The translations under genes and the position numbers were made by a program. DNA of 9,136 nucleotides from a virus. Lineage: Duplodnaviria; Heunggongvirae; Uroviricota; Caudoviricetes. Shown here in pieces: positions 1 to 9,136 of this stretch (position 1 is the stretch's first letter; every line of letters begins with the position of its first letter). The notes under the pieces are model-generated. The model saw nothing but the letters and a program-made list of their open reading frames with translations, made no database searches and was not told the origin of the DNA. Location: IMG/VR virus record IMGVR_UViG_2713896770_000016, positions 1 through 9,136 of that record; one strand, written 5' to 3'.

Positions 1-2138
1 TCATCGGTCATAATGGCAGACTGCGCTTCACGTGATTGCTTCAGCCACCATTTAATGGTGTCACGATCAATGACTCCGCCAGCAGTTTCCAGATCGATAG
101 TCTTACTAAATTCCGGTCCCATATCTCCGGTTTGCGGATCGAAAAATATTGCACCTATTGAGATAATCGGGGCATCAGGATTTTTTCCCATGGTTTCAAG
201 GTCGATCATTAGATGGTCACACGTCCTGCTGGTGGATGTGATAACACGATGACCGTTCACCGTAATTAAGGGATCTGCCGTCTCGCCAGTTTCACTATCG
301 CTGGCGTGATCCTGAGCGCTGCCAGCATTCTCCTTGTGTGGATGTTCAGCGCCTTCCATTTTCTCCGAATCGTCTTCCTGAACTTCAACCTGGTTCTTGT
401 CATCGAATGTTTCCTGGTATGTTGCGTCGCCCATCACCGCACCACAATCAGGGCAGTTGCCACCGCCGGTCTGACCGCAGGCGGTGCAGACTTTTTCCAC
501 TTCCTGTTGCGCCACTGGTTCAGGCTGTTTCGTTTCTGGCTCGTTTTGTAACGCATTTGGGCTGTTTTGTTCCGCTTTCTGGTCGTTCTGTTCCGTTTCT
601 TGCTGGTTCTGGTTCACAGAATCGCGGGTTTCAATCCCCTTCACCCATTTCGGATCATTCGGGTCGCTAATCCCTGCAACAAATTCACCACGTGATGCGG
701 CGAGCAACTGATTGGCGTCAGGCTGGCTGATATTGGCTGCCTGCATAATTTTGTTTACTTCGTCAGCGGTAACTTTTACCGGTTCTGGCTGTGCGGTCGT
801 GTCAGATGCACCAGTATTTTGTTGTGAACCTGAGTATGTACTGTTTTTGCGGGCGAAATATTCTTCTTTCGTGATTTCAGTAGCCCCGGCAGCCAGCGCC
901 TTATCCAGACCAGAAAGTTTGTTTGCGCGACCGTATTTTTCGCCATCCTTGTCGGTGAAGAGGAAGTAGAACGGCCCCTCACGCTCTACAGATGGTTCGA
1001 CTTCCACTTTGCATTCGGTTTTTTCGTTGTCCGGAATTGCCGTTTCCACTGCATCAGTTTCTGGTACTGGCGACGAGAGAGTATCAGTTGCGCTCTGATT
1101 TGTTCCTTCATCTTCAAACACGCCCTTTGTAGTCAGGTATTCAGTAATGTATTTGTTCAGTGCCACAGGATCTTTGTGAATGTCGATCGGACGTTCACGG
1201 ACAAGGCCAAAAATAGTCTGGCGGTCGTAGCGAAGGGCATCAGGCTGTTTGCGCATCGATGCCGAGATACGCTTCCAGTCTTCGCGGTCGTTGTCGATAA
1301 CTTCATTTTTTGCCCAGCGATGGATGCTGCCGTCAATGTTTCCGGCATCCACATCACCAGGCCAGAGAGCGTAGGCCAGTTCGTCATCCAGTGTTTTCCA
1401 TGTCTGCTTATATTCGCGACGAATGACTGCAGTGACAGGGGGGATTTTTTCTGCTGAGTTTTCAGTGTGCTGTCGGTGGACTCTGGCGCGGGCGAGATCA
1501 ACAACAGACGTGTATTTTCCGGTTTCCTTGCGTTCACCTTCGCGACGTTTTTTCCAGATGCGCATTTCTGCCTGAATTTCGGGCCATTTGGCACCAGGCT
1601 TACATTTATGCTTAACCCACCCGATGGCATGCAGCTTAAGCTCCGGATACATGGCGTTAACTTCTGGCATTTTCATCAACGCTTCAACGATATGTCCGTC
1701 GAATGTTGCCATGTCTTCCTGCAACAATTCCTGCGCGCTAATCACCATATCAACGGTGATGTTTTCACATGTGTCGAACTTAACCATGACAGCGTTCTGT
1801 ACTTCAAGGGACAGTTTGTCAAAATTGACGTTCATCGGTTCGGATTCTGGTTCGACCGGAATAAAGGAAGCGGATTCCTCATCCCAGCGGTTTTCCTGCA
1901 TATATTCGGTATCCCAGGAGTCGATAGCAGGGCGGGGCATGCCGGGTTTATCCTCGCAGATAAGAAATTTATAAGCGCAGTCCTGAGCAGCCGGATATTG
2001 CTCCAGGAATTGCCAGGTAAATTTGGCACGGGCGCGGCGTTCGTCGCCAGCTTCAATGGCAGTGGCTACAGCAACTGCACCTTCTTCCTTTATTGCCTGT
2101 TCGTCCGGAATGGCGGCGCAAATAAAGACTTTACTCAT
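1..2138 (-). CDS. recE: RecE-like exodeoxyribonuclease VIII family protein, N-terminal ~712 codons; 3' end runs off the left edge of the window
   Basis: Minus-strand frame opens at ATG 2138-2136 (MSKVFICAAIPDE...) and stayed open in the stretches hand-checked (1-300, 1440-1500, 2100-2138). It is absent from the ORF track, consistent with having no in-window stop. The plus strand over the same span holds only short, mutually tiling shadow ORFs. GAGG lies about 10 nt upstream of the ATG. An internal segment ...LLAASRGEFVAGISDPNDPKWVKGIETRD... resembles what I recall of Rac RecE. No search was run. Confidence 0.7.
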   Translation of the reverse strand, partial: MSKVFICAAIPDEQAIKEEGAVAVATAIEAGDERRARAKFTWQFLEQYPAAQDCAYKFLICEDKPGMPRPAIDSWDTEYMQENRWDEESASFIPVEPESEPMNVNFDKLSLEVQNAVMVKFDTCENITVDMVISAQELLQEDMATFDGHIVEALMKMPEVNAMYPELKLHAIGWVKHKCKPGAKWPEIQAEMRIWKKRREGERKETGKYTSVVDLARARVHRQHTENSAEKIPPVTAVIRREYKQTWKTLDDELAYALWPGDVDAGNIDGSIHRWAKNEVIDNDREDWKRISASMRKQPDALRYDRQTIFGLVRERPIDIHKDPVALNKYITEYLTTKGVFEDEGTNQSATDTLSSPVPETDAVETAIPDNEKTECKVEVEPSVEREGPFYFLFTDKDGEKYGRANKLSGLDKALAAGATEITKEEYFARKNSTYSGSQQNTGASDTTAQPEPVKVTADEVNKIMQAANISQPDANQLLAASRGEFVAGISDPNDPKWVKGIETRDSVNQNQQETEQNDQKAEQNSPNALQNEPETKQPEPVAQQEVEKVCTACGQTGGGNCPDCGAVMGDATYQETFDDKNQVEVQEDDSEKMEGAEHPHKENAGSAQDHASDSETGETADPLITVNGHRVITSTSRTCDHLMIDLETMGKNPDAPIISIGAIFFDPQTGDMGPEFSKTIDLETAGGVIDRDTIKWWLKQSREAQSAIMTD

Positions 2139-2261
2139 TTTGTTTTAACCTCATGACAGATTTAAGGATGAACAAATCCCTGCCATTGCTGGCATATAAG
2201 AATCAAATCTGATGTATTCATTAAGCTGAATGTCGTATTGTGGCAGTTATTTTATTACTGC

Positions 2262-2483
2262 TCACCATGACTCTGCTTTTACAGGTAAACCATCACGACC
2301 AAGGAAGACTTTAATCATGGTTTCCTTAATACAGTGTTGTGTGGAAAAATCACGAATATAGAGCCGTTGTTTTTTAATGTTGTTTACCGAAGCAATATAT
2401 GTTCTTCCTTTATGAATAACATAATCACCGGGAGTCACGCACTGACGAGGAATCTCATCAGTTCCGAAGTGATGAGCAATCAT
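2262..2483 (-). CDS. kilR: KilR-like small protein (73 aa), putative cell-division inhibitor
   Basis: Track ORF 2262..2495 (77 aa). The internal ATG at 2483 is preferred because GGAG sits 6 nt upstream of it, whereas the 2495 ATG has no SD. The product [22 protein letters not shown]... is 73 aa, the length of Rac KilR, and lies immediately upstream of recE-like in the same orientation. The name rests on recalled similarity, not alignment. Confidence 0.5.
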
Positions 2484-2657
2484 AATTATCTCCATTTTTA
2501 CAAATGAACTTTGTTGATGCGGTGCCTGGTGCCTCCAGGTGACGTTAACCAGTTAACAATTAACGCCGGATACAGAGAACCCACCCATAACACTGTTTTT
2601 GGTTTTAACTGTTCCGCGTGCGCTCAGCCGCATTCACCGCATCACAAAACTCACTTT

Positions 2658-2715
2658 AAAAAGGGCGGCAGACCAGTCACGGAGTAAAACTGATACCGCC
2701 AAACGTCACCAGAAA
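2658..2715 (-). ncRNA. dicF: DicF-type sRNA (prophage-encoded, ftsZ-targeting family)
   Basis: Minus strand reads TTTCTGGTGACGTTTGGCGGTATCAGTTTTACTCCGTGACTGGTCTGCCGCCC followed by TTTTT. This matches the 53-nt E. coli DicF RNA as I recall it, apart from about 1 nt. It has a GC-rich 3' stem plus U-tail and occupies the same operon position as in Qin (after the ydfC-like gene, about 175 bp before the next gene). Confidence 0.7.
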
Positions 2716-3056
2716 ATTGATAACAGAGGGCGTTGCAGCGGGGTTGTCACTTAAGCGTATGGTCAACCTGACAACCCGGTGTCCTCAACGGGGGAAGGAA
2801 TAACCCCGCCATACTTACCGCCGCGCCATTTCGCGGATTGCCACAACCGGAAGCGCACGGTCGACGAAAATTTAACGACAGGCTATCTATGAACCAGCTA
2901 CCTCGCCGTGCGCTTTCGCGTTATGGTCTGACTTTTCAGGGAAATATCCTTTCAGTAAACTGTCAGTGCCGGATGCTCACCCGTGTCCGGCGCAAGCACT
3001 CCACCTCACCCGTGGAGAACTCCTTAATTACCAACCTTAGCTTCGTTGGTTAGCTA

Positions 3057-3275
3057 TTAACGCGGGTATGTAATCATTCTGGCAATGGTTAATGCCGCTG
3101 CTTTTTCCAGATTGGTGATATCCTGCTCCAGAGAGGACAGATTTTCAGCCTGCTTAGCCCTGACTTCATTAGCCCATTTCAGATCCTGCGCTGCATTAAT
3201 TTTCTGGTGCATCCACTCATAAAGTTCATCATTGGTATAGTCTGGCGCGATGATGACGGGTTCTCGTTTCTGCAT
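3057..3275 (-). CDS. YdfC-like small prophage protein (72 aa), function unknown
   Basis: Track ORF of 72 aa with GAGG 5 nt upstream of the ATG at 3275. Its size and position (third small gene after the repressor, before dicF) match ydfC of the Qin dicB operon. The sequence looks coiled-coil-like. Identity is inferred from context and length only. Confidence 0.5.
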   Translation of the reverse strand: MQKREPVIIAPDYTNDELYEWMHQKINAAQDLKWANEVRAKQAENLSSLEQDITNLEKAAALTIARMITYPR

Positions 3276-3304
3276 ACTGATTCCTCGCGGTGCTGTTTCG
3301 CTTA

Positions 3305-3433
3305 TCAGCCATTAGATTTTGCCGAACTGGAAAGCACCTGTTTAAATTCGTTGAAGCTGTGAGCTTCTTCGCCTTCGGCAAGGCCTTCGAAGTATTCTTC
3401 GTAAGCCTTTTCCATGATTGTGTCGAAATCCAT
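3305..3433 (-). CDS. YdfB/YdaG-like small prophage protein (42 aa)
   Basis: Hand-translated MDFDTIMEKAYEEYFEGLAEGEEAHSFNEFKQVLSSSAKSNG, with stop TGA at 3307-3305. The ATG at 3433 lies 1 nt after the stop of the upstream gene, suggesting translational coupling. The 42-aa acidic product matches the ydfB/ydaG family in size. The overlapping 69-aa track ORF 3229..3438 in another frame was rejected. Confidence 0.6.
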   Translation of the reverse strand: MDFDTIMEKAYEEYFEGLAEGEEAHSFNEFKQVLSSSAKSNG

Positions 3434-3434
3434 A

Positions 3435-3590
3435 TCACCCACCTGAATTTCTTTCCAGCCAGCGACGCGCTCCAGATTCGGTTTTAAACGTTTTGCTTTT
3501 GGTATACGTCATTGCGGTGAACGTACCGTACTGGTTGGGGAACACGCCACATACCAGAGATTCGCTGTTGCCAAGATCGATAGTATCCAT
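3435..3590 (-). CDS. YdfA/YdaF-like small prophage protein (51 aa)
   Basis: Part of track ORF 3435..3671. The internal ATG at 3590 has GAGG 5 nt upstream and gives MDTIDLGNSESLVCGVFPNQYGTFTAMTYTKSKTFKTESGARRWLERNSGG (51 aa, the size of YdfA/YdaF). A 78-aa version starting at 3671 is an alternative, also with a GAGG upstream. Confidence 0.6.
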   Translation of the reverse strand: MDTIDLGNSESLVCGVFPNQYGTFTAMTYTKSKTFKTESGARRWLERNSGG

Positions 3591-3775
3591 GCTGACCTCA
3601 TTTCCCCTTAACGCCGGGGTAGCGGAACAAAAACCTGCTGCATAGTTATTAAAGTTGAACCCTGCCGTCATGTTCTTACGCCTCGGGCTGGCTACTTAAC
3701 CCCTGACCACTGCCTGGTAACTCGAAGTATTGCCCTGCATTCTGTGGGGCGGGGTGGGTTGGTATGAAAAGAAGG

Positions 3776-3814
3776 ATACCCATAGGTATTTAAAAAGTAA
3801 ATACCCATGGGTAA
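3776..3814. promoter_or_regulatory. Operator pair downstream of the repressor gene (OL-like), probable control region of the leftward early operon
   Basis: Two 14-bp dyads: ATACC-CATA-GGTAT (3776-3789) and ATACC-CATG-GGTAA (3801-3814), centres 25 bp apart. The second contains the perfect 12-bp palindrome TACCCATGGGTA. They share the half-site with the operators at 4295-4347. Confidence 0.5.
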
Positions 3815-3855
3815 ATTTTTGCGGTGTCTTAACTGGTGACTAGTTGTTTGGTGAG

Positions 3856-4275
3856 CTATGATGCGTTTTGTGCTTTCTTTTTACGGATTTCTTCGTAGAT
3901 CATATTGTAATACTGTTTTTTCTCTTCAAGAGTTTTTAATAATTTATCCGCTTCACTTTCTGGCAGTTCGTCTAAGAGATCTAAAAAAATACGTTGTCGT
4001 GGCGTTAGAACCCTTGTTTCATAACTGGAGGCTGTGTTCGTTGATGATGAAACGATACCATCCATCCATCCCCGGGGTAACCCAAAGGACTCTTCGATAA
4101 TCTCCACCATATCATCAGCGATCCGTTTTTTTCCCTTTTTCCCCTCTGGGTACAACATTCTTGATACATAAGAAGGCTCGCGCCCGATCTTTCTGGCCAC
4201 GTTAACCGCTTTACCATCGCATTTCTCATCACGAATTTTGATGAGTTGCTGTCGTCTAAATTCATATTTGTCCAT
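3856..4275 (-). CDS. Prophage repressor, DicA/RacR-like HTH protein (139 aa)
   Basis: Track ORF. The N-terminal region has an HTH-like segment GKAVNVARKIGREPSYVSRML. The C-terminal LTPRQRIFLDLLDELPESEADKLL resembles the DicA C-terminus as recalled. It is divergent from a cro-like gene and flanked by palindromic operators. No SD precedes the ATG, so the mRNA may be leaderless. Confidence 0.8.
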   Translation of the reverse strand: MDKYEFRRQQLIKIRDEKCDGKAVNVARKIGREPSYVSRMLYPEGKKGKKRIADDMVEIIEESFGLPRGWMDGIVSSSTNTASSYETRVLTPRQRIFLDLLDELPESEADKLLKTLEEKKQYYNMIYEEIRKKKAQNAS

Positions 4276-4350
4276 AGGTAAATAATAGATGCGATTACCG
4301 CAAGGTAAACAACCTGTGGGTATTGACTTTTGTTTACCTGTGGGTATTCT
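4268..4350. promoter_or_regulatory. Divergent promoter/operator region (OR-like) between the repressor and cro-like genes
   Basis: Operators TTACC-GCAA-GGTAA (4295-4308), cAACC-TGTG-GGTAT (4310-4323) and TTACC-TGTG-GGTAT (4334-4347), plus a degenerate copy over the repressor start (4268-4281). Rightward promoter candidate: -35 TTGACT 4323-4328, 16-bp spacer, -10 TATTCT 4345-4350. Leftward candidate: -35 TTTACC (complement of 4304-4309), 16-bp spacer, -10 TATTAT (complement of 4282-4287), ending about 6 nt before the repressor ATG. Confidence 0.5.
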
Positions 4351-4375
4351 TTGCTGTGTTTACTAAGGAGTAGCT

Positions 4376-4657
4376 ATGGAAGAATTAAGAATATTTCTCA
4401 ATTCTCTTTCGTCAGATGAACAGCGTATGTTTGCATGCGAGTGTGGTACCAGCATCGGTTATCTAAGAAAGGCATTGAGTAAAGGTCAAGTGTTAGGGGC
4501 ATCGTTATGTGTCCTTATTGAGCGAGCCAGTAATGGTGAAGTTACACGTCAGCAACTAAGGCCTTTTGATTGGATGAATATTTGGCCCGAGCTGGAAGAT
4601 ACCAAAACGTTAACACAACCACTTTCTAGGAGCTTGATTCATGAAAATCAAGCATGA
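4376..4657 (+). CDS. Cro-like regulator, YdaS family (93 aa)
   Basis: Track ORF with AAGGAG 5 nt upstream of the ATG. HTH-like segment CGTSIGYLRKALSKGQ...ASLCVLIERASNGEVT. It is the first gene of the rightward operon, divergent from the repressor. Confidence 0.8.
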   Translation: MEELRIFLNSLSSDEQRMFACECGTSIGYLRKALSKGQVLGASLCVLIERASNGEVTRQQLRPFDWMNIWPELEDTKTLTQPLSRSLIHENQA

Positions 4658-5066
4658 ACACATCCGCATGGCGATGAATGCCTGGGCGCGTCCTGATGGC
4701 GAAAAAGTTCCAGCAGCTGGAATAACCCAGGCTTATTTTGAGTTGGGTATGACGTTCCCAGAACTGTATGACGACAGCCATCCGGAAGCCCTGGCTCGCA
4801 ATACCCAGAAAATTTTCCGCTGGGTAGAGAAAGACACCCCTGATGCTGTTGAAAAAATGCAGGCTCTGTTACCGGCGATCGAAAAGGCGATGCCGCCTTT
4901 GCTGGTGGCCCGTATGCGCAGCCACAGTTCTGAATATTACCGTGAGATCGTCGAACGGAGGGATCGGCTGGTGAAGGATGTCGATGATTTTGTTGCGTCA
5001 GCGGTTGTTTTGTATGACCAGATGAATCGCGGCGGCCCGGCAGGGAATGCTGTGGTGATGCACTAA
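4641..5066 (+). CDS. YdaT-family protein (141 aa), CII-like position
   Basis: Track ORF with AGGAG 8 nt upstream. It starts MKIKHEHI like Rac YdaT as recalled and is about the same length. It overlaps the preceding gene by 17 nt. Confidence 0.8.
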   Translation: MKIKHEHIRMAMNAWARPDGEKVPAAGITQAYFELGMTFPELYDDSHPEALARNTQKIFRWVEKDTPDAVEKMQALLPAIEKAMPPLLVARMRSHSSEYYREIVERRDRLVKDVDDFVASAVVLYDQMNRGGPAGNAVVMH

Positions 5067-5088
5067 AAGCACGGTGTTCGGGGGTTTT

Positions 5089-6051
5089 ATGAGCAGCAAG
5101 CTTCATGGTCTTGTCTGGGAAGGGTGCGCCTTCACCGGCATGATCTTATCCAGGGTGGCGGTTATGGCCCGTCTTGCAGACTACAGCAATGACGAGGGCG
5201 TGTCATGGCCTGCCATTGAAACTATCCGGCGTCAGATCGGTGCAAGAAGTGAATCCACAGTGAAATCGGCTATTGCAGAACTGGCGAAAGAGGGCTGGCT
5301 GACGAAGGAAGAGCGTAAGGTCGGTGGGCGTAATGTAAGCAATATCTATCGGCTTAATGTGGAAAAACTCGAAGCAGCTGCGGCGGCGGCGCGTGAGTCA
5401 TATAAACCGAAAAGAAAAATTAGCCCGGCAAAAAATGACCCGTTAACAGTTGACCCGTCAAATATTGACCCCTCAACGGTTGACCCGTCAAATTTTGATG
5501 GATCAACTGTTGATAAAAAACTGCCGATTAGGGGGGCGATGATTGACCCCGATCCGTCAGTATTAAAACCTGATCCGTCAGATAAAAGATCTTCTTGTCC
5601 GGACGCTTCGCAACCGGACCCGCAGACGGCTGAACAGGATTTTTTAACCCGACACCCTGACGCGGTTGTGTTCAGTGCGAAAAAACGCCAGTGGGGAAGT
5701 CAGGAAGATTTGGTGTGCGCACAGTGGATCTGGGGACGAATCGTGAGTCTTTACGAGCAGGCGGCCAGCTATGATGGCGAGATCACTAGACCGAAAGAAC
5801 CCAACTGGACAGCATGGGCCAATGACGTTCGCACAATGCGGATGCTGGATGGCAGAACTCACAGACAAATTTGTGAAATGTTTGGGCGTCTCCAGCGGGA
5901 TTCGTTCTGGGTAAAAAACATCATGAGTCCGGCAAAACTCCGGGAAAAATGGGATGAACTGGTTATCCGCCTGGGGCGTTCGCCTGCGCAGCGTTGCGTG
6001 AATCACATTTCTGAACCGGACACTGAAATACCGCCGGGATTCAGGGGGTGA
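5089..6051 (+). CDS. Phage replication initiation protein (O-like): N-terminal winged-helix DNA-binding domain, repeat linker, DnaT-like C-terminal region
   Basis: Track ORF 5074..6051, which starts at a GTG. I prefer the in-frame ATG at 5089, preceded by a G-run, though the start is uncertain by 5 codons. The N-terminus LSRVAVMARLADYSNDEGVSWPAIETIRRQIGARSESTVKSAIAELAKEGWL is typical of phage replication-protein HTH domains. It sits directly upstream of a DnaC-like gene and carries an iteron array inside the coding sequence. Confidence 0.85.
   Translation: MSSKLHGLVWEGCAFTGMILSRVAVMARLADYSNDEGVSWPAIETIRRQIGARSESTVKSAIAELAKEGWLTKEERKVGGRNVSNIYRLNVEKLEAAAAAARESYKPKRKISPAKNDPLTVDPSNIDPSTVDPSNFDGSTVDKKLPIRGAMIDPDPSVLKPDPSDKRSSCPDASQPDPQTAEQDFLTRHPDAVVFSAKKRQWGSQEDLVCAQWIWGRIVSLYEQAASYDGEITRPKEPNWTAWANDVRTMRMLDGRTHRQICEMFGRLQRDSFWVKNIMSPAKLREKWDELVIRLGRSPAQRCVNHISEPDTEIPPGFRG
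5435..5524 (+). repeat. Iteron array (about six tandem 15-bp repeats, TTGACCCGTCAAAT-like) inside the initiator gene; putative replication origin
   Basis: Direct repeats at about 5435, 5450, 5465, 5480, 5495 and 5510, each with an internal dyad TTGAC-cc-GTCAA, followed by an A-rich tract (5513-5520). Two further related copies (GATCCGTCAG) lie at 5551-5560 and 5572-5581. In the protein they encode a DPSxx pentapeptide-repeat linker. Confidence 0.6.
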
Positions 6052-6057
6052 CGTGTC

Positions 6058-6804
6058 ATGAAAAACATTGCGGCAGTTGGGGTTCTTGAACGTATTCGCA
6101 GACTTGCACCACAGGGGTCGGTTCCACCGTACCGGACGGTGGAGGAGTGGCGGGAATGGCAACTTGCTGAAGGACGAAAACGCAGCGAGGAGATTAACCG
6201 CCAGAATCGCCAGTTGCGGGTGGAAAAAATCCTGAATCGTTCGGGCATCCAGCCTCTGCACAGCAAATGCTCGTTTGCAAATTATCAGGTGCAGAACGAC
6301 GGGCAAAAATACGCGCTGAGCCAGGCCAAATCCATAGCTGACGAACTGATGACCGGGTGCACGAATTTTGTGTTCAGTGGTAAAACCGGCACCGGGAAAA
6401 ATCACCTTGCAGCGGCGATGGGCAACCGGCTGATGGTGAAGGGGCGCAGCGTGATTATCGTCACCGTGTCTGACGTCATGAGCGTGTTGCATGACAGCTA
6501 CGACAACGGCAAATCCGGGGAAAAATTTTTACAGGAGCTTTGCGGGGTTGATTTGCTGGTCCTGGATGAAATAGGCGTTCAGCGGGAGACGAAAAACGAG
6601 CAGGTGGTATTGCACCAGATAATTGATCGCCGGACAGCATCACTGTGCAGTGTCGGGATGTTAACAAACCTGAATCATGCCGCAATGAGTACGCTTCTTG
6701 GTGAGAGGATTATGGACCGCATGACCATGAACGGTGGTCGATGGGTGACGTTTAACTGGGATAGCTGGCGTCCAAATGTCAGCAATATGAGGGTTGTGAA
6801 GTAA
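6058..6804 (+). CDS. DnaC-like helicase loader (IstB-type AAA+ ATPase), YdaV-like (248 aa)
   Basis: Track ORF with AGGGGG about 9 nt upstream. Walker A motif FSGKTGTGKNHLAAA and Walker B motif LLVLDEIG. Same length as Rac YdaV as recalled. Confidence 0.9.
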   Translation: MKNIAAVGVLERIRRLAPQGSVPPYRTVEEWREWQLAEGRKRSEEINRQNRQLRVEKILNRSGIQPLHSKCSFANYQVQNDGQKYALSQAKSIADELMTGCTNFVFSGKTGTGKNHLAAAMGNRLMVKGRSVIIVTVSDVMSVLHDSYDNGKSGEKFLQELCGVDLLVLDEIGVQRETKNEQVVLHQIIDRRTASLCSVGMLTNLNHAAMSTLLGERIMDRMTMNGGRWVTFNWDSWRPNVSNMRVVK

Positions 6805-6825
6805 TTTTGTCCGGAGGAAATTTTA

Positions 6826-7596
6826 ATGGAAACCGTATCTGACGCACTGAAAGCACTGAAAAAAGCCTCTTCACATGTGGTGGCAGCTCGCCTTGGAATC
6901 AGTCGTGAAGAGGCTGTCAACGAGCTGTGGGAACTCAAAAGAAAAGGCGTCGTTGATAAAACTGGTCACACCTGGTTTCTGGCTGGCGAAGGTGAATCCC
7001 GGGTAACCGAAGAGCGGCCAGTAAAATCTGAAGCACAGGATATGCTGACCGGGGAGGTCGAACAAAAAGTTACCGCAGACATGATGATTGAGTTTATCGG
7101 TCAGGATGGGGCTAAAACGTGTGAGGAACTGGCGGGTAAGTTCGGTGTCAGTACTCGCAAGGTTGCTTCCACGCTGGCGGTGGTAACCGCAACGGGGCGG
7201 CTGGCACGCGTTAATCAGAACGGTAAATTTCGTTACTGCATGCCGGGCGATAATTTACCAGCAGAGCCGAAAGCCGCGCTGGTAACGGAAAGTGATGGTA
7301 AGGCCTTTCCTCAGCCAGCAGGTGCTGCGTTACCAGTCCGGGAAGCCGCAACACAGGAAGAAATTAAAACAGAAACTGTGGCGGACATTGTGCAGCCGTT
7401 GCCATCGTTTACCGAAACGCAAGCAGATGAGCTGATTTTTCCGTCCCTTCGCAGGGCAAACCTGGCGCTGCGCAGGGCGAAAAGTGATGTTCAGAAGTGG
7501 GAGCGAGTCTGCGCCGCGCTGCGGGAGCTGAACAAGCACCGGGATATTGTTCGACAGATTACTGATTCTTCCCGCCGTGTTGTATCGGAAAAGTGA
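6826..7596 (+). CDS. Hypothetical protein (256 aa) with two winged-helix-like modules
   Basis: Track ORF with GGAGG 8 nt upstream. Internally duplicated 50-60 aa segments (residues about 1-55 and 83-140) of the pattern hydrophobic-x-x-L-x-x-x-G-[IV]-S-x-x-x-[VA]. The C-terminal third is basic and helical. No family was recognised with certainty. Confidence 0.7.
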   Translation: METVSDALKALKKASSHVVAARLGISREEAVNELWELKRKGVVDKTGHTWFLAGEGESRVTEERPVKSEAQDMLTGEVEQKVTADMMIEFIGQDGAKTCEELAGKFGVSTRKVASTLAVVTATGRLARVNQNGKFRYCMPGDNLPAEPKAALVTESDGKAFPQPAGAALPVREAATQEEIKTETVADIVQPLPSFTETQADELIFPSLRRANLALRRAKSDVQKWERVCAALRELNKHRDIVRQITDSSRRVVSEK

Positions 7597-7611
7597 TTGC
7601 CGGAGGCGCTT

Positions 7612-8037
7612 ATGGCAAAAGTATTTACACAAGAAGAGCGGGAAAAAATTAAAGGGCAGGTTGTTGAACTTGTACGTCTGAGCGGTCGCGAGACGTTGCG
7701 GCAACTGGAAGCCAAGACAGGTGCGACAAGATATCTGATGAGTGTTCTCGCCAGAGAGCTGGTTGCCAGTGGCGATGTATACAACTCTGGTTACGGGTTA
7801 TTCCCGTCTGAACAGGCGCGTAAGGACTGGCAAAATGCTCGCAAAAAACTCTCAAGGGCAAAGGTGAAGAAACCTGCAGTGGTTGATCCGGACCTTATCT
7901 GGTCGTTACCAGACGGCGAAATACGCCGCTACGACAGGCGCCTGAATATAATCTGTCGCGAGTGCCGGAAGAGCGAAGCTATGCAGCGTGTACTGGCATT
8001 TTATCAAGGAAATGTTAGGTATTTTAGACGTTACTAG
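7612..8037 (+). CDS. Hypothetical protein (141 aa), N-terminal winged-helix-like module, C-terminal basic region
   Basis: Track ORF 7597..8037 begins at a TTG. I prefer the ATG at 7612, which has GGAGG 5 nt upstream. It starts 16 nt after the stop of the previous gene. The N-terminus resembles the modules of the preceding protein. Confidence 0.7.
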   Translation: MAKVFTQEEREKIKGQVVELVRLSGRETLRQLEAKTGATRYLMSVLARELVASGDVYNSGYGLFPSEQARKDWQNARKKLSRAKVKKPAVVDPDLIWSLPDGEIRRYDRRLNIICRECRKSEAMQRVLAFYQGNVRYFRRY

Positions 8038-8190
8038 ATTAAAGAGCATTAGTTCAGATGTGAATTGACATTTTCATGGCGCAGGGTAGAGCCAGCGTGG
8101 TTGTCCGCTTTGCGTCAAAACCAGATATTACCAGATTTAGACATATATTCCCGATAGCCCTGCTCTGATGCTACACTCTGTGCTATTTTC

Positions 8191-8877
8191 ATGACCCCAA
8201 TAAAAATATTTATGACTATTGCTGATTTCAAACGGCCTAAATTGGAGCTCCCAAACGGGGCAAACAAACTACTACTGCACTCTTGCTGTGCTCCATGTTC
8301 CGGTGAAGTGATGGAGGCGCTTCAGGCCTCGGGAATCGACTACACCATCTTTTTCTACAACCCGAACATTCATCCTCAGAAAGAGTATTTAATTCGTAAG
8401 GATGAAAATATTCGCTTTGCTGAACAACACGGCGTGCCGTTTATCGATGCTGATTACGACACCGACAACTGGTTTGAACGTGCCAAAGGAATGGAATGGG
8501 AGCCTGAGAGGGGGATCCGTTGTACCATGTGTTTTGACATGCGTTTTGAGCGGACAGCGTTGTACGCTGCTGAAAATGGTTTCAGTGTGATCAGCAGTTC
8601 ACTGGGCATTTCACGCTGGAAAAATATGCAGCAGGTTAACGAGTGTGGGCGGCGAGCTGTTGCGCATTATCCGGGTATGGTGTACTGGGATTATAACTGG
8701 CGCAAGCAGGGCGGCTCGTCCCGTATGATTGAAATCAGCAAGCGCGAAAAATTCTATCAGCAGGAATATTGTGGCTGTGTGTATTCTCTGCGCGATACCA
8801 ATCTACACCGCAAATCTCAGGGACGCCCTCTTATCAAAATTGGCCAACTCCACTACGGAAAAGAAGAGAAGGAGTGA
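8191..8877 (+). CDS. QueH-like (DUF208-type) putative Fe-S protein, possible epoxyqueuosine reductase homologue (228 aa)
   Basis: Track ORF. N-terminal [12 protein letters not shown] followed by FFYNPNIHP, and later RCTMC and EYCGCVYS cysteine motifs. I recognise this pattern as DUF208/QueH, not confirmed by search. It follows a 153-bp intergenic region with extended -10-like TGcTACACT (8169-8177) and TGcTATTTT (8181-8189). No SD precedes the ATG. Confidence 0.75.
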
Positions 8878-9136
8878 TTTTATGGATCACCTTTCTGATT
8901 GATTTCATATTGGCGAGGTGACGTGAGTTAAGTAGAATGGCTGCGGGTGCTTGAGGCTATCTGTCTCAGGCATGAACACTGAAAGGCAGATAGAGAAAAG
9001 CCCCAGTTAACATTTCGCGTCCTGCAAGACGCTTAACATTAATCTGAGGCCCAATCTATGTCTCACAAATGTAGGTTAGCCTCTTACGTGCCGAAAGGCA
9101 AGGGGAAGCAGGCTATTGTTAACACCAAGCTGTAAT

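Follow-up and report, generated by a model that had tools for sequence, protein, structure and literature searches.

A dicF gene with a single base change upstream of kil in the leftward operon of a lambdoid prophage

The question raised by this locus is whether a gap in the leftward operon of a prophage, at positions 2658-2715 on the minus strand of the window (the whole stretch of 9,136 nucleotides analysed here), encodes the small RNA DicF, and whether such an RNA would inhibit host division when the operon is derepressed. DicF has been known since 1989-1992, and what is described here is one more copy of a gene whose characterisation dates back over thirty years. Positions 1-9116 of the window are 100% identical to the chromosome of the bovine E. 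coli isolate F2_407_2_2 (NZ_CP074756.1) and to that of a second bovine isolate; in NZ_CP074756.1 the region is a lambdoid prophage inserted beside potC, and its RefSeq annotation has no ncRNA feature at dicF. The locus is of little importance beyond annotation, where a division- and metabolism-controlling sRNA stays invisible in the gene list because RefSeq/PGAP omits dicF from this record.

Identity and frequency of the dicF copy

The Rfam scan of the whole window at gathering thresholds returned two hits, DicF and the sok antitoxin. The DicF model (RF00039) scored 74.2 bits against a gathering score of 48, with an E value of 2.4e-15, and matched the minus strand at 2714..2663 over model positions 1-52 of 52, with all consensus pairs formed. 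Aligned with dicF of E. coli K-12 MG1655 (b1574, 53 nt, NC_000913.3 1649382-1649434), the minus strand at 2715..2663 is identical in 52 of 53 positions without gaps. The sole mismatch is at nucleotide 43, a C in K-12 and a G in the window (position 2673), while nucleotides 1-42, including the entire 5' end and the anti-Shine-Dalgarno loop, are the same. The flanks also match K-12 fully, both in the U5 tail and in the 26 nt directly upstream, which cover the position equivalent to the 5' end of the 53-nt K-12 species. The complete minus strand of 2658-2715 reads TTTCTGGTGACGTTTGGCGGTATCAGTTTTACTCCGTGACTGGTCTGCCGCCC followed by TTTTT. Over the counterpart of the longer K-12 precursor (Table 1), three differences from K-12 were found, namely one substitution, one extra C and nucleotide 43. 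The identification of dicF is based on the covariance model and on the identity to a characterised gene, not on folding energy. The original prediction, made from the sequence alone, had placed a DicF-type sRNA on this strand and in this interval from a nearly exact match, and had pointed to the Rfam DicF model as a check; strand and coordinates were right, the T's at 2662..2658 completing the interval, and both the model score and the alignment bear out the match.

Table 1. Features of the dicF region, with window coordinates
Feature	Position	Strand	Basis
kil, 73-aa KilR-family FtsZ inhibitor, in place of K-12 dicB-ydfD	2262..2483	-	NCBIfam NF008465, 140 bits vs cutoff 92
Leader, DicF terminator to kil	2484..2657	-	Common to K-12 dicB leader and Rac kilR leader (alignments)
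U5 tract, Rho-independent terminator / Hfq-type 3' tail	2658..2662	-	Sequence; same in K-12
Mature 53-nt DicF sRNA	2663..2715 (5' end 2715, 3' end 2663)	-	RF00039 and 52/53 K-12 identity
Terminator hairpin, DicF nt 16-52	2664..2700	-	MFE fold, Rfam consensus structure, predicted ftsZ duplex
C43G, single difference from K-12 DicF	2673	-	Alignment to K-12 dicF
DicF 5' single-stranded region, nt 1-24, K-12-identical	2692..2715 (approximate boundaries)	-	Alignment; putative role after PMC5069750
Counterpart of K-12 190-nt RNase III-generated DicF precursor	2663..2852 (boundaries by homology alone)	-	K-12 alignment; length from PMC10448788
ydfC homologue, dicF in its 3' UTR	3057..3275	-	RefSeq annotation of identical record; K-12 DNA identity
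ydfB-like gene	3305-3433	-	Annotation, PHROG match
ydfA-like gene (DUF1391), first operon gene	3435-3590	-	Annotation; Pfam DUF1391, 90.8 bits; PHROG match
Putative PL-like promoter	3773..3813	-	-35 TTTACT 3801..3796, 17-nt spacer, -10 TATCCT 3778..3773
Repressor-like gene, 139 aa	3856..4275	-	phrog_5736 'transcriptional regulator', 234 bits

Of 5,426 complete E. coli genomes, about 3,900 carry dicF as judged by a 58-mer match. The G43 version of this 58-mer is exact in 14 E. coli records, compared with 3,055 for the K-12 allele. Among the matches listed (5 of 14), the exact G43 copies belong to O121 or O121:H19-named strains, including RM8352, and to unserotyped 2014C/2015C isolates. A 701-nt query running from the end of ydfC through dicF and the leader into kil is matched at 100% by ST865/ST866 and two bovine isolates. 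In IMG/VR, 120 contigs carry the DicF core, with C43 in 119 and G43 in one; the 105 with enough downstream sequence have dicB (99), kil (2) or neither (4). Linkage of dicF to kil was found in about 134 of the 5,426 complete genomes, as counted with a 531-nt query that can be covered at 80% or more only by dicF-linked kil loci; shorter junction queries of 141 and 321 nt could not split these loci from Rac kilR, as Rac has the leader and the terminator 3' end in common with them. Twenty-two deposited phage records carry the dicF region of the window at 95-99% identity. A strict DicF-core pattern matched two E. coli records only among the GTDB species representatives, a result with little bearing on more diverged relatives. 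Copies with G43, and loci in which dicF precedes kil, are in the minority, and each also occurs outside the window.

Fold, ftsZ pairing and the G43 change

The 58-nt RNA folds in RNAfold as a single hairpin of nt 16-52 followed by U5, which agrees with the terminator-like 3' end noticed earlier. The minimum free energy is -17.0 kcal/mol, compared with -15.9 kcal/mol for the K-12 allele, and G43 gives the hairpin a longer unbroken stem. This energy is modestly better than that of shuffled sequences (z = -1.99; 8 of 200 shuffles as good). The hairpin was absent from the output of a simple terminator scan, probably through its 9-nt loop and bulge, which fall outside the scan criteria; since RNAfold and the Rfam structure both give the hairpin, the miss is read as a limit of the scan. 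Rho-independent termination at U5 produces the 3' end of the 53-nt RNA in K-12 (PMC9438474, citing Faubladier 1990), and a 72-nt alternative DicF arises from read-through transcripts (PMC9438474).

K-12 DicF represses ftsZ by direct pairing of its 3' part with the ribosome-binding site, as established with compensatory mutations; mutations also showed that its 5' end pairs with xylR, and this end is predicted to pair with pykA (PMC5069750). In the window, the predicted ftsZ-pairing residues lie in the hairpin loop and 3' arm, among them the anti-Shine-Dalgarno CUCC at 2681-2684, and the predicted duplex spans ftsZ -28..-1, over the Shine-Dalgarno. We compared the two alleles using DicF nt 23-53 and ftsZ -45..+6, the K-12 leader standing in for that of the source strain. 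The K-12 allele gives a duplex of -27.9 kcal/mol (net -5.9 kcal/mol after unfolding costs), in which C43 pairs with G-20 and U44 is bulged. For the window allele the values are -28.8 and -5.3 kcal/mol, with G43 paired to C-19 and U44 to G-20. G43 lies in the predicted ftsZ-pairing region, where it shifts the pairing register, and it slightly stabilises the hairpin of the sRNA itself; C32-C35 (CUCC) are predicted to pair with the ftsZ GGAG at -11..-8 in both alleles.

The duplex of full-length DicF with the ftsZ leader (RNAduplex) is not exceptional, 63 of 1000 mononucleotide shuffles being as good. Because the energy is not better than that of shuffles, the case for pairing rests on K-12 genetics, and the energies serve here only to compare alleles. 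The base-pairing with ftsZ put forward in the original prediction is direct in K-12 (PMC5069750), and the predicted duplex is kept by the window allele. From these models, the G43 variant is predicted to be functionally equivalent to the K-12 allele.

Operon context, mechanism and rival readings

In transcription order, the leftward operon on the minus strand presents the 139-aa repressor-like gene, the ydfA-like and ydfB-like genes, ydfC, dicF, kil, an exonuclease gene, xis and int; the exonuclease gene is 2.5 kb and runs off the window, xis and int coming after it. The placement of dicF in a leftward prophage operon was therefore correct, the gene lying on the minus strand downstream of the ydfA, ydfB and ydfC homologues and upstream of kil, exonuclease, xis and int. 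It sits in a 573-nt gap without an intact gene, between ydfC and kil. The plus strand carries YdaS/Cro-like and YdaT/CII-like genes, O-like and DnaC-like replication genes, DUF1627, DUF977 and a QueH-like gene. The latter (8212-8877), annotated as epoxyqueuosine reductase QueH, stands between the replication module and hok/sok and belongs to phrog_3217, a family with no assigned function.

The window has a type I toxin-antitoxin locus, hok/sok, at its right end. The second Rfam hit, 'sok antitoxin' (RF01794, 115.6 bits, gathering score 59), covers 8945-9117 on the plus strand, which in the matching record is also the strand of hokD, the gene directly downstream of it. Lying in the hok sense, the match is probably the hok mRNA leader to which Sok is antisense. 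At 9117-9136, 14 of the 20 last bases differ from NZ_CP074756.1, from the third base (G) of the hokD start codon onwards, and the phage record PV340562.1 matches through to 9136; in the true source genome, recombination or an insertion could have created a breakpoint at hokD.

The hexamers of the PL-like promoter match the consensus at 8 of 12 positions, under the threshold of the scan. Two palindromic operator-like sites overlap this promoter on the minus strand, TACCCATGGGTA at 3813..3802 and TACCTATGGGTA at 3788..3777. The motif ATACCCAyrGGTA is found in two copies between the repressor gene and ydfA and in two more at the divergent promoter (4312-4324 and 4336-4348), where the copies overlap a promoter-like TTGACT-16-TATTCT. 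We infer from these sequences that the PL-like promoter is under the control of the prophage repressor. A 'terminator-like' hairpin returned by the scan at 3813..3777 was rejected as a terminator, since it consists of the two palindromic operator-like sites, whose motif is found again at the divergent promoter, and a mir-2041 match at the same pair (3777-3813) is spurious; the sub-threshold Rfam matches to mir-2041, CRISPR-DR41, snoU49 and tsr32 were taken as chance. From the PL-like region to dicF, no other promoter-like or terminator-like site was found on the minus strand by the promoter/terminator scan. Co-transcription of dicF from the PL-like promoter is consistent with this result and agrees with K-12, in which DicF originates from the operon promoter only (PMC10448788).

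The repressor is not DicA: its score on the DicA model is 24.5 bits, with the cutoff at 101, and the protein is a member of phrog_5736. Neither this nor the exchange of dicB for kil had been noticed in the original prediction. The immunity region (3856-5066) is of the Rac-like YdaS/YdaT type, with a Cro-like 93-aa protein (weak YdaS_toxin match) and a YdaT/CII-like 141-aa protein. This Rac-like region has the 139-aa phrog_5736 repressor, not DicA/DicC, and the operon that it controls is Qin-like.

Downstream of dicF, the kil product also matches phrog_294, 'Kil protein for bacterial septation inhibition'. The leader between them has a sub-threshold match to STnc100, a Salmonella sRNA family, at 2510-2647 of the minus strand (37.7 bits for a gathering score of 47, E = 3.4e-6 for a 1.7-kb stretch), and the Rac kilR leader scores 28 bits on the same model. 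Within this leader, PGAP places a 28-codon 'DicB, incomplete' pseudo-CDS (2510-2593). We rejected it as a dicB remnant, as no DicB model matches it and the corresponding K-12 sequence is an untranslated leader, and the pseudo-CDS is regarded as an annotation artefact.

We conclude, with a probability of about 0.88, that 2663-2715 of the minus strand is a genuine dicF, a C43G allele of the K-12 sRNA lying in the 3' UTR of ydfC in the leftward early operon of a lambdoid prophage, which would be expressed and processed as in K-12 so that DicF and Kil both hit FtsZ. The basis for this in the window is the sequence identity, the model score, the fold, the operon context and the ftsZ complementarity.

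The way the locus would work can be drawn from K-12 experiments, on which the expression, processing, Hfq dependence and division block of the window copy are modelled. In K-12, DicF is processed from the dicBp transcript, RNase III yielding a 190-nt species and RNase E the 5' end of the 53-nt RNA, and derepression leads to filamentation via DicF and DicB (PMC10448788). In the prophage, release of the repressor from the PL-like operators would allow transcription through ydfA-ydfB-ydfC, and some transcripts would stop at the hairpin and U5 terminator of DicF. RNase III would then give a precursor of ~190 nt and RNase E the 5' end of the 53-nt RNA, as in K-12. Mature DicF, with Hfq as in K-12, would use its loop and 3' arm to pair with about -28 to -1 of the ftsZ leader; by covering the Shine-Dalgarno it would block FtsZ synthesis and hence septation, again as in K-12. 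Through its unchanged 5' end it would repress xylR and pykA also. Read-through transcripts would supply Kil, a protein inhibitor of FtsZ, and the prophage would in this way hit FtsZ twice, by RNA and by protein, like Qin with DicF plus DicB. The division inhibition on derepression that had been expected of this RNA is supported by homology to K-12.

The hairpin plus U5 is structurally a terminator, and the element could be an intrinsic terminator or attenuator only, set between ydfABC and the kil and recombination genes, with an RNA inactive or unstable in trans, for example through G43. The rarity of the G43 allele fits this reading, as does the hairpin upstream of Rac kilR (KilS), which retains the stem and U-tract without the DicF loop or 5' end, so that a terminator can outlast the DicF targeting sequences. 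Nevertheless, the 42 nt upstream of the change are all K-12-identical, 5' end and anti-Shine-Dalgarno loop included, and the predicted ftsZ duplex is not weakened. Considering moreover that the two roles are compatible, the K-12 sequence doing both (PMC9438474), we regard a terminator without DicF function as quite improbable. An RNA upstream of kil might otherwise be a KilS-type sRNA of the Rac kil module and not DicF, since the Rac gene upstream of kilR is the sRNA KilS (PMC8175672), whose terminator and downstream leader are homologous to those of the window. This reading is refuted by the alignments and has a negligible probability: the window scores 74.2 bits on the DicF model with 52/53 identity to DicF, against 39.1 bits, below the gathering score, for the KilS-type sequence with its other 5' end and loop, and the homology to Qin is unbroken from ydfA through dicF.

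The gap had also been described as free of ORFs, which is essentially right in that no intact annotated CDS lies between ydfC and kil, but two mechanical plus-strand ORFs overlap the dicF site, 2511-2687 (58 aa) and 2599-2754 (51 aa), and the PGAP 'DicB' pseudo-fragment also lies in the gap. That the region codes for protein on the plus strand, with an incidental DicF match, is hardly credible; the two ORFs, each with a TTG start, lie on the strand opposite a conserved operon, the annotations of the identical RefSeq record and of K-12 include neither of them, and the E value of the DicF match is 2.4e-15. Beyond the preferred reading of a K-12-like dicF, a bolder proposal appears unlikely. C43G, placed in the ftsZ-pairing arm and tightening the hairpin, might change the strength or the targets of DicF and, with a KilR-type protein for DicB, make a distinct 'DicF plus Kil' double block of FtsZ in a prophage perhaps still inducible; or DicF and Rac KilS might be diverged forms of one terminator-derived sRNA ahead of swappable division inhibitors.

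Comparison with known systems

The closest system is the dicBF operon of K-12 Qin, with 96% DNA identity over window 3628..2503, a segment that starts 38 nt ahead of ydfA and takes in dicF and the leader. As in Qin, ydfA, ydfB and ydfC lie upstream of dicF on the same strand. At window 2503, some 15 nt short of the dicB ATG, the homology stops, and it is picked up again past ydfD (window 2223..1372); dicB and ydfD, downstream of dicF in Qin, are absent, and a KilR-family gene takes their place. The control by DicA is not matched either, as the repressor and operators of the window are not of the DicA type and the K-12 homology starts only 38 nt before ydfA. Furthermore, Qin is a decayed remnant, whereas in the stretch examined the window element has int and xis as well as genes for replication and Q-type antitermination.

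EHEC is said to carry four dicF copies, and the best-matching record of the window likewise has 4 places matching the 701-nt query. Multi-copy dicF is documented in EHEC O157:H7 and other pathogenic E. coli (Balasubramanian 2016; Melson and Kendall 2019; reviewed in PMC7873438).

KilS of Rac (b4833; PMC8175672), reported as possibly having a promoter of its own, occupies the same position relative to a kil gene. The KilS-type loci compared were those of K-12 Rac (L128, 4406-4503, minus strand) and of a further stretch (L005, 1451-1506, plus strand). The terminator hairpin (GGCGG.ATCAG ... CTGAT..CCGCC, followed by T5) and the leader of ~170 nt are homologous between KilS and the window DicF, but KilS differs in its 5' end and loop, with no CUCC anti-Shine-Dalgarno, and its DicF-model score is 39.1 bits, under the gathering score of 48. 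The comparison suggests that DicF and KilS are positional homologues, a relationship not stated in one paper on KilS (PMC8175672).

Lambda Kil, Rac KilR and Qin DicB are likewise FtsZ-directed, encoded in the early operon on the PL side and expressed on derepression. DicB works through MinC, and KilR is annotated as an FtsZ inhibitor. Unlike these proteins, DicF acts on the ftsZ mRNA. Taken with Qin and Rac, the window locus looks like a ydfABC-dicF block of Qin type to which a Rac-type kil has been joined by way of the leader that all three have in common, and it offers a clean example of lambdoid mosaicism, in which a cassette of dicF, terminator and leader is joined to dicB or to kil, with a different repressor and operators upstream.
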